A stretch of DNA of 62,415 bases, counting the filler, from Globobulimina sp. (lineage: Eukaryota): the NCBI GenBank assembly GCA_003354225.1. It is 31 parts of 31 records of this genome, joined end to end, with 100 filler letters (N's around TTAATTAATTAA, not from the genome) between each part and the next. Parts side by side here need not be neighbours in the genome. Positions count along the whole stretch, not along the records: positions 28,248 to 30,164 come from PIVH01010619.1; 30 more parts are not named here. One strand, written 5' to 3'. A program made the translations under genes and the position numbers. Positions 25,988 through 32,280 of the stretch are shown piece after piece. The notes below the pieces were generated by a model. That model was not told the origin of the DNA, did not search any database, and was given only the letters and a program-made list of their open reading frames with translations. Numbering within the stretch: the stretch's first letter is position 1; every line of letters begins with the position of its first letter.

Positions 25988-26316
25988 CGAACAAATTCAA
26001 ATACATTTATAATATTCATATATAATATATACATCAGATCTGATTGACTCACCATTGAAATGAATAATTGCCTTTTTTTGTATCATAATCGCTTGTTTTT
26101 TCTTTTTTTTTATCTTAAATTTTTGATATTNNNNNNNNNNNNNNNNNNNNNNNNNNNNNNNNNNNNNNNNNNNNTTAATTAATTAANNNNNNNNNNNNNN
26201 NNNNNNNNNNNNNNNNNNNNNNNNNNNNNNCGCGGCCCTACGATGTCTCGCGTTTATCGGATAAGGAGAAATGTAGCACACAAAAAGAGTTCGAGACTGG
26301 CACCGTACCCTTTAAT

Positions 26317-28147
26317 GTGTATAAGGAATTCTTTTGGAGCGCCATTCGTGATTTTGATTATGAATCCACTTGGTTTAAAAACAAAAAATACCACAATCAA
26401 ATGCGAGAGAGCAATAAGAAGAAAAACGATAATAAAAATATAATCTATATGGTGATTACATTGATAATATTAATCATTGCGCAGATCTGCGATCCCGTGG
26501 CCGATTTGATATTAGTTATATGGGCCACCAATCAGCAAAACGAGTCGGCACCGCACCATTCCTCGTATTGGTGGATATCATTATGGTGCAGCATCATAAT
26601 AATCATTGCCGTGTTGCGCCTAATCAGTGGATTGTGTATCAGTCGATGGCTAAGCCGAGCTGCCTTTCATTTGAATATGAAAACTTTGTATTATTGTTTG
26701 CGAGCACCAATGGTTTATTATGATACTACACCAAAATCAAACATATTAAATAGATTCACAAAGGATACCAACATAATTGATATAGATATCCCTTTCGATA
26801 TTGATATATTTTCATCGCAATTTTTAATTGCAATCTCTTACATTATTATTGTGTGTATATTCATACCGCAAATGATCATAATATTCATTTGTATATCGCC
26901 CATATTTTATTATCTAATACAATCGTATCGATGCACGTACATTGAACTAGTGCGACTATGTATATTCGGATTAGATCCCATCACCTCGATTTTTAGTGAA
27001 ACTCTGATCGGATTATCTTCCATTCGCTCGTATAAATTGCAAAAATATTTCAAACAAAAGATGAATGATCGGATCACAATGTTTATCAACTTTTGGTATG
27101 TACGCAACAGTGTGTATTCCTGGTTTGACTGCTATTTGGATGTCTTAATTGATTTCATTGTGGTCACGGCCACCATTTTGGGCTTCTATGCGCGAGATTC
27201 GTTTAGTTCGCCTGCACTCGTTGCGTTTGCCATTGTTTATTTGAACATTATATCTGGACACTTACAAGTGGCAATATTGCAACTGGTATGGCTGGAATCT
27301 GAATTCGGCGCTGTTCAGAGATTGTTATGGTACCATCCATCGCAAAATAATATTATTTATGAAGCAAATCCTATTAATCCGCAGTACAAATTAGCTAATA
27401 AAGCTACGCAGAATAAATGGCCAAACAAAGGAAATATACAAATTAATGCATTGAAATTAAGATATAGAAAGAAATTGAATTATGTGCTGGATATACGTGA
27501 TGTGATAGCAATATCTGGCGGTGAAAAGGTAGGTATTTGTGGTCGAACCGGTGCTGGCAAGTCATCATTGATGGTGGCATTGTTCCGGTTGGTCGAACCT
27601 GAGTTATGTTCGTCAGTTATTATCGATGAGATTGAATGTTGTAAATTGGGTTTATTTGAACTGCGAAAGAATTTGACCATCATACCACAAGATCCTATAC
27701 TATTTATGGGCAGTTTGCGATTTAATTTAGATCCATTTGAGGAATATTGTGATGAAAAAGTATGGAATGTGTTGAAAAAATGTCAGTTGGAGTCTGTGAT
27801 AAAAATAAGAAAAGGTGGTTTAAATTGCGTAGTGTTTGAGAATGGCAGTAATTTCTCCCAGGGACAAAAACAGTTAATTTGTATTGCTCGCGCATTATTA
27901 AAAGATACCAAATGTTTATTGTTGGATGAAGCGACGAGTTCGATTGATAAATATAGTGATTATTTAATACAACAATTAATTAGAAAGCATTTTAAAAATA
28001 CGACTGTTTTATGTATTGCACATAGATTAGAGACTATCTTAGATTATGATAGAATTTTGGTATTAAAACAAGGCAAAATAGTTGAATTTGATAAGCCCCA
28101 AATCTTAATCAAAAATAAAAATGGGTTGTTCTCAAAAATGATAAATA
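26317..28147 (+). CDS. ABCC/MRP-type ABC transporter, C-terminal TMD2-NBD2
   Basis: YYDTTP..ILNRFTKD, GRTGAGKSS, IIPQDPILF, NFSQGQKQL, LLDEATSSID, IAHRL. Confidence 0.95.
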
Positions 28148-28298
28148 NNNNNNNNNNNNNNNNNNNNNNNNNNNNNNNNNNNNNNNNNNNNTTAATTAAT
28201 TAANNNNNNNNNNNNNNNNNNNNNNNNNNNNNNNNNNNNNNNNNNNNTATATTAACATAACTGACTGATTAGAATGGCTTTTTTGCAAAATACCAAAG

Positions 28299-29036
28299 TT
28301 GAATGAAGAAGTTGGCGAAGCATGTAAAGTGTTGTGGAATGAACAAAAAACGAAAGAGATATATGACAGGAGGGCTACAATGAAACTCACTGACTCCAGC
28401 GCATATTTTTGGGACAGAATCGATGAAATAATACAAACTGAATATGTTCCAAATGATGATGATATGCTGTTGCTAAATTACAGAACAACCGGAGTAGTTG
28501 AGATGAATTTGACGATACAAAAAAACATATATCATATACTGGACACTGGCGGAGAAAGGGCGGAAAGAAAGAAATGGATCCATTGTTTTGAAGGTGTGAC
28601 GGCTGTGTTGTTTGTGGTGTCTTTGTCGCAATATGACGAAGTGATGTATGAGGATGAAAGCGTGAACTGTATGGTAGATAATCTACAATTATTTGAGACT
28701 ATTTGCAATAATGATTATTTGTTTGAAAACACAACAATGATATTATTACTCAACAAAACGGATTTATTCGCCGAAAAGATACATGATAATAAACCAATCA
28801 CTCTTTGCCCAGAGTTTGTAGACTATGCAGGGAATCCAACATCATTCGATGAAACAACGTCGTATATCAAAGAAAAATTCCTGGAGAAAAATAAATCTCC
28901 AGATGATAAGACAATATTTGTTTATTTAACCTGTGCTATAGACAAGAATAACATTGAGAAGGTATTTAATGATATTGTACATACCATCACTGAGGATATT
29001 TCCATAGTTTACTCTCACTTGGATTGTTTCGATTGA
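28299..29036 (+). CDS. Heterotrimeric G-protein alpha subunit, 5' partial, atypical catalytic residues
   Basis: DSSAYF, RTTG, DTGGERAERKKWIHCFEGVTAVLFVVSLSQYD, NKTDLF, TCAID. Confidence 0.95.
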   Translation: MNEEVGEACKVLWNEQKTKEIYDRRATMKLTDSSAYFWDRIDEIIQTEYVPNDDDMLLLNYRTTGVVEMNLTIQKNIYHILDTGGERAERKKWIHCFEGVTAVLFVVSLSQYDEVMYEDESVNCMVDNLQLFETICNNDYLFENTTMILLLNKTDLFAEKIHDNKPITLCPEFVDYAGNPTSFDETTSYIKEKFLEKNKSPDDKTIFVYLTCAIDKNNIEKVFNDIVHTITEDISIVYSHLDCFD

Positions 29037-29326
29037 TTTGTATATATTGATTGTTTTTTAAATCATTTATGTTGTGTATATGTATTTTTGTGATGAATTT
29101 GTGTACACCATCTGACTCGACGAGATCACTCCTGAACTACTATTGTTGTATTCCTGTCATTTCTTAAATAAACTGCCAGTCTGCCATTGTAAATACTCAG
29201 TGATTCGGTTGGAAGCAGTTTTTCTAGAGTTTTTCTGATTGTAAATCCTAAAACATCCAAGCTCTTTCAACATTATTTGTATTTTTGTATTTCTGTATAT
29301 TTTTGTACTGAACGAATTTCAACATT

Positions 29327-30164
29327 ATGCAAGATTGTAATGAAACAGTTAATTGGATTCGTTTAACAACCTGCCCGTTACAAACTTTCTGCAAACCAAT
29401 AGTATTTGGAAAGGATGAAGGAATAATTATTGCACCACATGGGAAATGTAAATCCATCCAAATATACCACATACAAAAAAACAAGTGGACAGATTTTGTT
29501 CATTTTAAAACTCAAATTGAAATGAAATACAATACCATTGTAATGAGCCCGTTATCTAATAATACATTGTATTTATACGACGGCAAACAATATGAATTGG
29601 ATTCGATCCAGAAAACTCTAATTAAAATTAAGAAGAAAGCGTTTCAACTCGACTTAAAAAATAAAAAAGGCGCATATTTAGATTCTTGTATTCTTAATAA
29701 AGCATTCCATATTATTGGAGGTGCCAATTCATTGACGCATTTATCATGGAATATAATCACCGATTCGATTACTAATCATTCATTTTATTCTGACAATAAT
29801 AATAAACCAAACATTAAAGATTTCGGTTTGATACCGGTACAATCTACAAATAGAATTATAATGTTAGGTGGCAGAGACGACTCGAGATTTAGAGGCTATT
29901 TAAGATCCATTTATATTGCTCAATTATCACAAAATGATAATACTACATTTATTTGGTCCAAATCACAGTACGAAATGCCTCATGCAATGAGCCATTTTGG
30001 TTGCATCATAACGGACGATCAAAAATACATCATTGTGTTTGGAGGTAAAGTACATATTATTTGATAATGTATGTATATTTTTTGTTTTTTGTTTTGTGGT
30101 TGTAGGCAAAACCAAATCGAGGGGATCAATCGACGAGATTTCAATATTAAATCTTGAAACATGG
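29327..30164 (+). CDS. Kelch-like beta-propeller protein, 3' partial
   Basis: HIIGG, IIMLGG, YIIVFG|G repeats with downstream Trp; intron 30045-30105. Confidence 0.75.
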
Positions 30165-30376
30165 NNNNNNNNNNNNNNNNNNNNNNNNNNNNNNNNNNNN
30201 NNNNNNNNTTAATTAATTAANNNNNNNNNNNNNNNNNNNNNNNNNNNNNNNNNNNNNNNNNNNNGTTACTTTTTTTAAAAGTATGATGAGAAGTTACAAT
30301 TATGTTTATAATATAATACTTTTCATCAGCTTTTAGAAAACGTACCAACCCCTCTGCGACTGTCAAATATTTATAA

Positions 30377-32017
30377 TTACGTGTCGAATTTATCAATAAA
30401 AAATTTCAAATGATTTTTTAACAAAAAATGATTTTCTGTCCATCCATGTTTTTGATGATACAAATAATATTTTGCGGATTTTAGTAACATATCAATTACA
30501 TTCTTATTCCATCCCTTATTTCTATCTACATCCACCTCATTTGAATGTGCACAAATTGCTGAACAAACTCCCAATAAATGCTGCAATTTTACATAGGTTT
30601 GATGTTGCTGTTTAGCAACAATTAAATCACATAAATTATTTACCACTCTATATATATTATTTACTAATTCCTCATCGTATGCGATTTTACTCAAAGAACA
30701 AATAATTGCAAATGCACATTCATGTGTGATTTCCGTATTGTTTATCTCCTTTAAGCACTCTAACATTTTGTTAATGTGTGTCACAATTTTAGTATCTTCA
30801 TTTCCTTCAAATTGAATCATAAATTGCTTAAATTCCACGACAATCCTTAATAAAAAATTAATGATATTCGCATCATTCATATCTATTTGATTTAAAACAT
30901 TGATAATAAATTTAATGGATTTATTTTGTACATTTTGTTCCCTGTCATCACTATTAATTATATGTACCTGCTGCTCATTAAATATTTCATTTTTAAACAT
31001 CAATATTGCTGACAATATATTTATGGAATATTGTGCTGACTCAGTAATGTATACAGAGCCATCACTGACAAACATAACAATGGAATCAAACAGTTTAATA
31101 TAATTGGTTGTGTCATGAGATTTAATTATGGTATCATGACAAATTGAGAATGACCAACAAATTGTTGATATCCATTCTGATTTACTATTTGCGCATGCTT
31201 TTGACTGTAATCTGTTTATTAATATTTGAGCATTTTTAGCACACCAAATCATGGAATCGCGTATTAATTCTTGTTTATTTTTGTCGATTAAATATGAATG
31301 AACATTAGCAATGCACCACGAATATTTACCAAGTAAATTACCATTTATCTCACTGGGATTTAATTTTTTTATTATAATACAATATAAATCTTGCCAGAAA
31401 TTATAACTTTTAAGTTTTATGAAGCCAAAGCACCAAATTAATTTTCCTAATTCAGAGGCACTAAAAATATTTCTTGTGTTTATTTTTAGCGATAATTTAT
31501 TAAAATAAAATAGCAATGCTTTGGCACAAATTGACAATAAACTTTTTGACGATGCTCCATTAGATACGTATTGCTTAGCAATTGCAATGGAAATGGATAT
31601 GAATGCTCTCTTTATTTTAATAAATTCTTTATCATTTACAATACGAATGGTGCATTTTTCTATGATTCCTTTAAATATTTCTTTTTTTGATGCAATAAAT
31701 TCGATAAAATTGTTAAAATAATCTGCTTTCAGGATTTGTGTGATGACTTTACTGAGCACAATAATATCAAATTTTTTCTCTTCAAATAAAGCACAACATT
31801 TTACATATAAACTATAGCGATAATTGAGATTTGTAGGCAATATATCATGGCATTTATCGCATGTAATTAACATCAAACATACAAATTGTGGATGAATATC
31901 AGTAATACGACCGGTGTTTGGATCCATTATATAATGTACTAAATTAATAATAAATGTATTGAGTGGTTGCGATTTGTTTGATACATTTATCATTTGATTT
32001 AAAATATGATATAACAC
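30377..32017 (-). CDS. Helical-repeat protein with OPR/FASTK-like repeats, 5' partial
   Basis: FSASELGKLIWCFG, INGNLLGKYSWCIA, SKSEWISTICWSFS at roughly 39-51 aa spacing. Confidence 0.55.
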   Translation of the reverse strand: MLYHILNQMINVSNKSQPLNTFIINLVHYIMDPNTGRITDIHPQFVCLMLITCDKCHDILPTNLNYRYSLYVKCCALFEEKKFDIIVLSKVITQILKADYFNNFIEFIASKKEIFKGIIEKCTIRIVNDKEFIKIKRAFISISIAIAKQYVSNGASSKSLLSICAKALLFYFNKLSLKINTRNIFSASELGKLIWCFGFIKLKSYNFWQDLYCIIIKKLNPSEINGNLLGKYSWCIANVHSYLIDKNKQELIRDSMIWCAKNAQILINRLQSKACANSKSEWISTICWSFSICHDTIIKSHDTTNYIKLFDSIVMFVSDGSVYITESAQYSINILSAILMFKNEIFNEQQVHIINSDDREQNVQNKSIKFIINVLNQIDMNDANIINFLLRIVVEFKQFMIQFEGNEDTKIVTHINKMLECLKEINNTEITHECAFAIICSLSKIAYDEELVNNIYRVVNNLCDLIVAKQQHQTYVKLQHLLGVCSAICAHSNEVDVDRNKGWNKNVIDMLLKSAKYYLYHQKHGWTENHFLLKNHLKFFIDKFDT

Positions 32018-32280
32018 ATTTATTGTAAATAAATGATTATTGTTTTGTAGAAAGTGTTTTAATGAATTATTTTCATTTAGTTTTGTGAAAAATTGATCTA
32101 AAATCTGATTTCCATCAAAATGTCTTTGAAAATGGATAATTGAATCAAATAAACGAATAAAATGATTGGCATTGATAGCANNNNNNNNNNNNNNNNNNNN
32201 NNNNNNNNNNNNNNNNNNNNNNNNTTAATTAATTAANNNNNNNNNNNNNNNNNNNNNNNNNNNNNNNNNNNNNNNNNNNN

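Follow-up and report, generated by a model that had tools for sequence, protein, structure and literature searches.

The stretch analyzed here, which we call the window, is 62,415 bases of DNA from Globobulimina sp. with a G+C content of 34%, in which about 31 contigs of roughly 1.9 kb each are joined by spacers (44 N, TTAATTAATTAA and 44 N; for example, 28148–28247 and 30165–30264), so that gene neighborhoods spanning a spacer carry no meaning. The contig at 28248–30164 holds the last exon of a gene for a G protein alpha subunit (G-alpha), at 28299–29036 on the plus strand, with 245 codons followed by a TGA stop (29034–29036). The exon product comprises part of the helical domain, switches I to III, the G4 and G5 motifs and a remodeled alpha5 tail. 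G-alpha is the textbook signaling switch with a built-in timer, the timer being an arginine and a glutamine. In the window protein, neither the arginine finger nor the catalytic glutamine of a competent G-alpha is present. On balance, we favor the reading that this exon closes a genuine G-alpha paralogue of a foraminifer-type protist, a gene under constraint and apparently transcribed, whose product would have kept guanosine triphosphate (GTP) binding and lost the timer.

The open reading frame (ORF) matches the Pfam G-alpha family (PF00503) with an E value of 8.9e-78 and 262.2 bits (cut-off 48.8) over profile positions 107–333 of 333, and at E ≤1e-20 its matches among solved structures number 335 distinct G-alpha chains, Go being the best (E ~7e-59; Go/Gi1). 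The helical domain ahead of switch I is present, with only its C-terminal part on the contig, the profile match starting at position 107. The catalytic positions were set by an ungapped HMMER alignment to Go (query residue 13 corresponding to Go 123), in which the residues to be compared are Go R179 and Q205, which we take to be the equivalents of Gi1 R178 and Q204. All motifs lie on the plus strand. Switch I with G2 reads DMLLLNYRTTG (28461–28493), with the Mg-binding Thr kept and an Asn (AAT, 28476–28478) at the arginine finger, while G3 with the start of switch II reads DTGGERAERKKW (28542–28577), with DxGG kept, a Thr in place of Val (28545–28547) and a Glu (GAA, 28554–28556) at the catalytic glutamine. 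G4, which recognizes the guanine, is intact as NKTD (28752–28763), and G5 reads TCAID (28929–28943) with its TCA intact; the Mg-binding Thr of G2 (RTTG), the DxGG of G3 (DTGG), NKxD and TCA are therefore all four present. The face of switch II that contacts Gbeta-gamma and effectors, ERKKWIHCFEGVTA, is retained as well. The alpha5 tail is remodeled (…HTITEDISIVYSHLDCFD), and the window protein lacks the acidic extension that is typical of the clade at the C-terminus. A sequence-only reading of this DNA had reported the two altered codons within these switch I and G3 motifs, with NKxD and TCA intact, and the letters, when re-read, are as it gave them.

The two replacements set the window protein apart from its relatives. 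A protein search covering 5.8 billion clusters returned 691 matches at E ≤1e-10 among 834 candidates, the best of which are 55–68% identical to the window protein and, where named, foraminiferal (Ammonia sp. transcriptomes, EukProt). In the relatives aligned with the window protein, Arg occupies the first catalytic position in 30 of 30 and Gln the second in 30 of 30, which, with the alignment to Go, bears out the claim that both catalytic positions have been replaced. Among the best 120 of the 691 matches, Arg is found in all 117 that have a recognizable switch I (the other three lack the region) and Gln in 119, the exception being P0086, which has Thr. In a wider set of 284 G-alphas, the Arg, Val and Gln of the arginine finger, DxGG and the catalytic glutamine occur together in 252, and the combination of Asn, Thr and Glu in the window protein alone. 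A homologue search with residues 58–102 (switch I to switch II) gave one candidate and none that scored, so that the same switch sequence was not found, a weak negative. The normal switch I of the clade is DILLVRYRTTG; the animal consensus DxLRxR thus has a first Arg that normal relatives also go without. The earlier comparison with the consensus DxLRxRxxTTG therefore stands for the catalytic Arg, and fails for the first Arg, which normal clade members also lack. It had further been proposed that the Arg two residues after the catalytic position might compensate; this same Arg is invariant in all 31 aligned sequences, canonical relatives included, which argues against such a role.

Five runs from two studies hold the stretch, and the Logan contigs of four of them (X1 to X4) were aligned to the window contig; X1, X3 and X4 represent one sample, and X2 belongs to the other study. 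Among the listed records, AAT at 28476–28478 is unchanged in five (X1 2 and 3, X2 9, X3 13, X4 23) and GAA at 28554–28556 in four (X1 2, X2 9, X3 14, X4 23), in each case from four runs. For every covering record, the listed differences sum exactly to the count of other letters, and neither codon is hit. Both codons are thus confirmed by a second study. The chain of ~1.9 kb contigs suggests a poor assembly, from which one might suppose that sequencing or assembly has created the two codons. To this supposition we attach virtually no credence: the same two codons recur in four runs of two studies, reading AAT and GAA rather than CAA; a change from Arg to Asn requires one base change at the least and two as a rule, besides that from Gln to Glu, with many further changes around them; and Asn with DTGG is present independently in the nearest relative, P0121, described below. 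The view that a sequencing error was unlikely thus held, and such an error was rejected.

The contigs also bear on the limits of the exon and on transcription. The frame at 28269–29036 is uninterrupted, and the 245 exon codons run without a stop or frameshift in DNA of 34% G+C. Upstream of 28294, the X2, X3 and X4 contigs are unlike the window for at least 228–255 letters, and the last 30 of those letters, translated by hand, give VAILQRVKN in frame, where relatives have VTILQSVKD; the upstream loose end of the contigs encodes further helical-domain residues. A contig of X1 follows the window without a break from 28258 onward, which is what DNA or unspliced RNA would give. Furthermore, in the gene downstream, the X2, X3 and X4 contigs omit a 61-letter GT..AG stretch (30045–30105, after shift), and the frame continues over the joint. 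We infer that these contigs stem from spliced mRNA and that 28248–28298, at the start of the window contig, is the 3′ end of an intron, with AG at 28297–28298 and CTGAC and a T-run upstream. The gene is apparently transcribed, because the contigs look spliced. By the same contig alignment, the first nine ORF residues, from 28272–28298, are intron and not protein. The exon start would accordingly be 28299, after the AG, with 28294 as an alternative, and X2 record 9 spans 28294–29119 without a joint. An acceptor at 28272 was considered and rejected, since the departure of the contigs from the window lies wholly upstream of 28294, and the CTGAC that resembles a branch point would be too near. A tblastn search of the window with two full-length relatives found no second piece of G-alpha, only the exon at 28299–29036. 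Other loose ends in X2, X3 and X4 (28560–28606) encode canonical DVGGQKS and DVGGQR and overlap with the window only over ERKKWIHCF, and the samples therefore also contain canonical G-alpha paralogues; a GC-rich loose end may come from another organism in the sample.

Differences between the contigs and the window indicate how the gene has been constrained. X2 record 9 differs from the window at 13 of 826 places. From 28299 on, the coding differences among those listed comprise 19 distinct changes, 14 synonymous and five conservative (E>Q, D>E, I>M, K>R and F>L), against an expected synonymous fraction of 19% for all single-base changes, or 25% with transitions weighted threefold. The synonymous excess has a binomial P of 4e-7 to 1e-5, and a rough count-based ratio of nonsynonymous to synonymous rates (dN/dS) is ~0.1, figures drawn from the 19 listed differences, beyond which three more exist; being pooled, the differences are not fully independent, and they may represent alleles, strains or very recent copies. 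This pattern shows that the G-alpha gene is under purifying selection. Because of the 14 synonymous against five conservative differences, together with the open frame and the spliced-looking contigs, the gene is not pseudogene-like, which answers a doubt raised in the sequence-only reading.

In a tree of 58 G-alphas, the window protein lies within a clade of 25 foraminifer-type G-alphas (Shimodaira–Hasegawa-like approximate likelihood ratio test, SH-aLRT, 100), on an end branch of 0.9 against a median of 0.14, or ~6 times as long. Of the 109 columns with a conservation of 90% or more, it departs from the consensus at 24, whereas the 26 aligned relatives from P0001–P0030 do so at 0–5. The changed columns are concentrated in ORF residues 68–97, which cover switch I, beta2–beta3 and the start of switch II, with 12 of 21 changed there and 12 of 88 elsewhere (odds ratio 8.4, Fisher P 8e-5, for a region picked after seeing the list), and most of them are conservative replacements. 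Change has thus been focused on the switch segment and is not a uniform decay. A decaying or functionless duplicate, in which relaxed selection removed the catalytic residues and left an open frame behind, would account for the long end branch, for the number of highly conserved columns changed, for the loss of the C-terminal extension of the clade and for the fact that no run is on record as RNA. We nevertheless regard such a duplicate as very unlikely, given the 14 synonymous against five nonsynonymous variant sites (P ≤1e-5), the 245 codons free of stops and frameshifts in AT-rich DNA, the spliced-looking contigs, the clustering of changes in the switch segment and the occurrence of the same Asn in a slowly evolving Bolivina protein.

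That protein, P0121, emerged from a search among longer proteins and is the best match overall, with 869 residues and 70% identity over 233 residues. It comes from the Bolivina argentea transcriptome (EukProt EP01084), where an assembly chimera is possible. Its G-alpha domain (residues 506–852) follows ~500 residues with at least six hydrophobic segments, for which Pfam gives no family and Atlas look-alikes, with a best score of 0.76, give none either; this N-terminal region is an orphan membrane domain linked to G-alpha. On the window side, the longest contig, X2 record 9 with 1194 letters, reaches 368 letters upstream of 28294, approximately to where the G-alpha domain of P0121 starts. The membrane region has kin in two further Bolivina proteins, P0150 (864 residues, with a degenerate G-alpha) and P0144 (1236 residues, with seven matching stretches). 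In P0121, switch I reads DILLVNYRTTGV and G3 reads DTGGQKSERKKW, with Asn and Thr as in the window protein and the catalytic Gln kept. SLSQYD, VNCMVDNLQLFE and TCAIDKNNIEK are common to both proteins, and P0121 keeps the usual tail, ...SLISAGLMGDFGES. The two are sisters with an SH-aLRT of 97.8, or 93 after removal of the three trait columns, and in the sister trees the end branch is 0.67–0.73 for the window protein and 0.11–0.14 for P0121. P0121 is 81% identical to a canonical G-alpha, and the Asn-bearing domain is well conserved in Bolivina. Because P0121 and the window protein are sisters that share Asn and Thr, the changes from Arg to Asn and from Val to Thr are older than their split. The two proteins differ in that P0121 has kept the Gln and the usual tail and evolves slowly.

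Losses of this kind recur among foraminiferal G-alphas. With P0121 as query, a full HMMER search of 1.84 billion representatives yielded 13,349 relatives at E ≤0.001; our survey took in the best 150 of these, the matches of the longer-protein search and two cluster members besides. In this sample, which is biased toward relatives of P0121, 166 proteins have both catalytic columns, and a non-canonical residue occurs in 13 of the 34 that exceed 450 residues, compared with six of the 132 shorter ones (Fisher P 1.5e-6). The states seen in place of Gln are Leu, Ala, Thr, Arg, Ser and Glu, and those in place of Arg are Asn, Tyr, His and Gln. Among the Nonionella stella proteins, P0123 (1403 residues; with P0139 alongside) has Leu for Gln, P0133 (1002 residues, ankyrin repeats and G-alpha) has Gln for Arg and Ser for Gln, and P0163 (950 residues) has Tyr at the arginine finger with DTGG. 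Asn with DTGG occurs in P0238 of Bolivina argentea (644 residues, hydrophobic segments and G-alpha) and in P0179 (538 residues, ENA source), and P0211 (721 residues, JGI source) has Glu for Gln with its Arg kept. The arginine finger or the catalytic Gln is also missing from P0168 (Bolivina argentea), P0135, P0207 and P0086 (ENA). Since such losses are recurrent in foraminiferal G-alphas, the window gene is one case of a wider pattern and not a lone oddity.

Within this pattern, Thr in DxGG is found in five of the 284 G-alphas, all of them without the arginine finger (four with Asn, one with Tyr), and in none that bear the Arg. The Thr of DTGG recurs in the DTAGQ of Ras. With its Asn and DTGG, the window protein fits a foraminiferal group proposed here, marked by Asn (or Tyr) at the arginine finger and Thr in DxGG, whose members are the window protein, P0121, P0179 and P0238. 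In a free tree, Thr in DxGG arises three times; a constrained tree with the five DTGG proteins together is not rejected, with a P value of 0.55 in the approximately unbiased test (p-AU), and lies 4.35 log-likelihood units above the quick free tree, a comparison in which long branches are involved. Independent pairs were also used to test whether Arg loss goes with Thr in DxGG, in an underpowered comparison that gave at most three of six pairs (p ≥0.25). The link between Thr and the lost Arg is possibly a structural coupling or the mark of one clade.

How a protein of this constitution might work can be outlined from what is established for canonical G-alphas. In PMC3202810, Gi1 R178 and Q204 are the two essential residues, positioning the gamma-phosphate and the attacking water, and Q204 is equivalent to Gi2 Q205; the same text describes how Pasteurella multocida toxin (PMT) deamidates this Gln to Glu, which inhibits both the basal GTPase activity of Gi2 and that stimulated by regulators of G protein signaling (RGS), and arrests the active state. 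Similarly, 10.1101/795088 reports that Q204R and R178C abolish hydrolysis. Under the reading we favor, the arginine finger would have become Asn and DVGG would have become DTGG on the branch shared with P0121. The window lineage would then have evolved ~six times faster, with most of the change in the segment running from switch I into switch II, and Glu would have taken the place of the catalytic Gln. Since the Mg-binding Thr, DxGG, NKxD, TCA and ERKKWIHCFEGVTA are kept, nucleotide binding and the conformational change are most likely kept as well. The protein would still bind nucleotide and switch its conformation, and GTP hydrolysis would be very slow or nil. Once loaded with GTP, it would stay active, and its output would be set by expression, nucleotide exchange, tethering or turnover instead of a built-in timer. 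The probable outcome is a switch that remains "on" far beyond the usual time or that does its work without hydrolysis.

Hydrolysis might, however, have been kept by other means, with the Glu serving as a general base, or with a GTPase-activating protein (GAP) supplying Arg and Asn or Gln in trans, so that the protein would still cycle. RapGAP, which supplies a catalytic residue to Rap in trans, is a precedent, as is the Gln61-to-Glu change of Ras taken up below, and the strong conservation of T, G, E and K, residues of switch II and of the RGS contact, would fit a cycling protein. RGS proteins provide no arginine finger, and a candidate GAP was not found in this analysis. Furthermore, the change from Gln to Glu in G-alpha blocks basal and RGS-stimulated GTPase activity, as stated in PMC3202810. 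Retained hydrolysis therefore appears improbable to us.

Comparison with known systems places the window protein in its family. The canonical Gi/o G-alphas (Go, 8tzq chain B; Gi1, 1agr and 1gia) and the foraminiferal P0001, P0002 and P0010 belong, by sequence, to the same family and fold. The canonical foraminiferal G-alphas are 64–68% identical to the window protein and have the G2 Thr, DxGG, NKxD, TCA and ERKKWIHCFEGVTA in common with it; the window protein differs from canonical G-alphas in having Asn for Arg, Glu for Gln, DTGG for DVGG, a remodeled alpha5 tail and no C-terminal extension of the clade type. The mechanism proposed here has an analogy in the Rnd proteins and RhoH, which natively lack hydrolysis residues, are GTP-bound and are controlled by expression, localization and turnover. 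The likeness extends to mechanism only, as these are proteins of the Rho family without a helical domain. In PMT-deamidated G-alphas (Gi2 Gln205 to Glu, Gq Gln209 to Glu), the change and its position are the same as in the window protein; there the change is post-translational, made by a bacterial toxin in a protein with its Arg kept, whereas the window protein has it encoded in the genome and has lost the Arg too (PMT data from PMC3202810).

The plant extra-large G protein XLG2 offers a different parallel. According to 10.1101/795088, both the arginine finger and the catalytic glutamine are natively missing from its G-alpha-like domain, and the lineage possesses a canonical G-alpha too; GTPgammaS binding is 100–1000 times weaker, and RGS1 and Gbeta-gamma are still bound. 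The window protein could likewise be a decoy or scaffold that binds Gbeta-gamma, RGS or other proteins in any nucleotide state. The remodeled alpha5 tail would fit such a role, as would the P-loop, which lies off the contig in the window gene and is altered in its sister, and P0121 resembles the XLGs in being extra-large and fused. In 10.1101/795088, however, XLG2 carries Glu where the Arg would be and Arg/Lys where the Gln would be, hardly binds nucleotide, and is left without the Gly and Lys of the P-loop, without DVGG and without the TCA Ala. The visible part of the window protein has no XLG-type loss of nucleotide-binding motifs; under purifying selection, it has retained its Mg-binding Thr, DxGG, NKxD and TCA. 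Its kinship to XLG2 is no closer than the family, and the 500-residue membrane region of P0121 is unlike the Cys-rich domain of the plant proteins. A nucleotide-independent decoy is thus, in our view, unlikely.

The reading of a G-alpha that binds GTP and has lost its timer has to be weighed against several observations. Nucleotide binding can be judged only in part, as the window contig lacks the P-loop and all that precedes the helical domain; in P0121 the P-loop is altered to GSGLSGKS. In H-Ras, the change of Gln61 to Glu raises the intrinsic rate, and Glu is therefore not necessarily dead chemistry. None of the five runs is on record as RNA, and the evidence for transcription is the spliced look of the contigs. 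The long end branch, together with the shortened and remodeled tail, could mean that the usual partners have been lost, and the possible origins of the variants, given above, also count against the reading. Nucleotide binding, the loss of GTPase activity and the content of the N-terminus are what we infer from sequence. The proposal in the sequence-only reading of a GTPase-deficient or pseudo-GTPase G-alpha gains from the change of both residues, from the constraint on the gene and from the Asn shared with P0121, and it holds to this extent, with the GTPase loss itself a prediction.

Arg or Gln losses in G-alphas are known mainly from cancer mutations, from bacterial toxins and from the plant XLG decoys, in which nucleotide binding has been lost as well. 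That native G-alpha-like proteins without the catalytic Arg and Gln exist in plants (the XLGs) is thus known already, and the effects of each single change are textbook matter. A full-text literature search found no genome-encoded G-alpha with the Asn/Glu pair and intact binding motifs and no description of foraminiferal G-alphas; Anantharaman et al. 2011, which may bear on this, is said to be a survey of odd G-alphas and may list inactive protist ones. In the window, a genome-encoded G-alpha has kept every visible nucleotide- and partner-binding element and remains subject to purifying selection, although both timer residues are gone. Should it bind GTP, it would show, as an experiment of nature, what use a cell makes of a G-alpha that is always on.

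The window gene belongs to a wider, undescribed set of foraminiferal G-alphas that lack hydrolysis residues and are often tethered. The other long or fused foraminiferal G-alphas belong to the same radiation, have lost hydrolysis residues and often carry N-terminal membrane or ankyrin parts, and none of the 284 has the Asn/Glu pair. Together with these membrane- and ankyrin-fused relatives, the window gene points to a large undescribed diversification of foraminiferal G-protein signaling. We suggest, quite tentatively, that foraminifera may have a class of self-tethered, timer-less G-alphas, in which a domain with Asn and DTGG is joined to a membrane or ankyrin module that replaces a separate receptor. 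The window protein would then be an extreme member, with the catalytic glutamine also replaced, either GTP-locked or independent of hydrolysis and under the control of tether or turnover.

Downstream of the stop, the start of the 3′ untranslated region lies at 29037–29119 (plus strand), X2 record 9 extending to 29119, and it varies among contigs. In X4 record 23, six substitutions and four listed insertions fall at 29042–29059. On the same contig, a further gene at 29327–30164 (plus strand) gives a weak Kelch-repeat match (PF24681, E 1.9e-4, under the cut-off) and runs off the contig end. The preceding contig carries the C-terminal part of an ABC transporter at 26233–28147 (plus strand; ABC_membrane, E 3.5e-25; ABC_tran, E 7e-19), which is unlinked to the G-alpha gene, and in the following contig an open frame of 615 codons at 30377–32224 (minus strand) nearly fills the contig.

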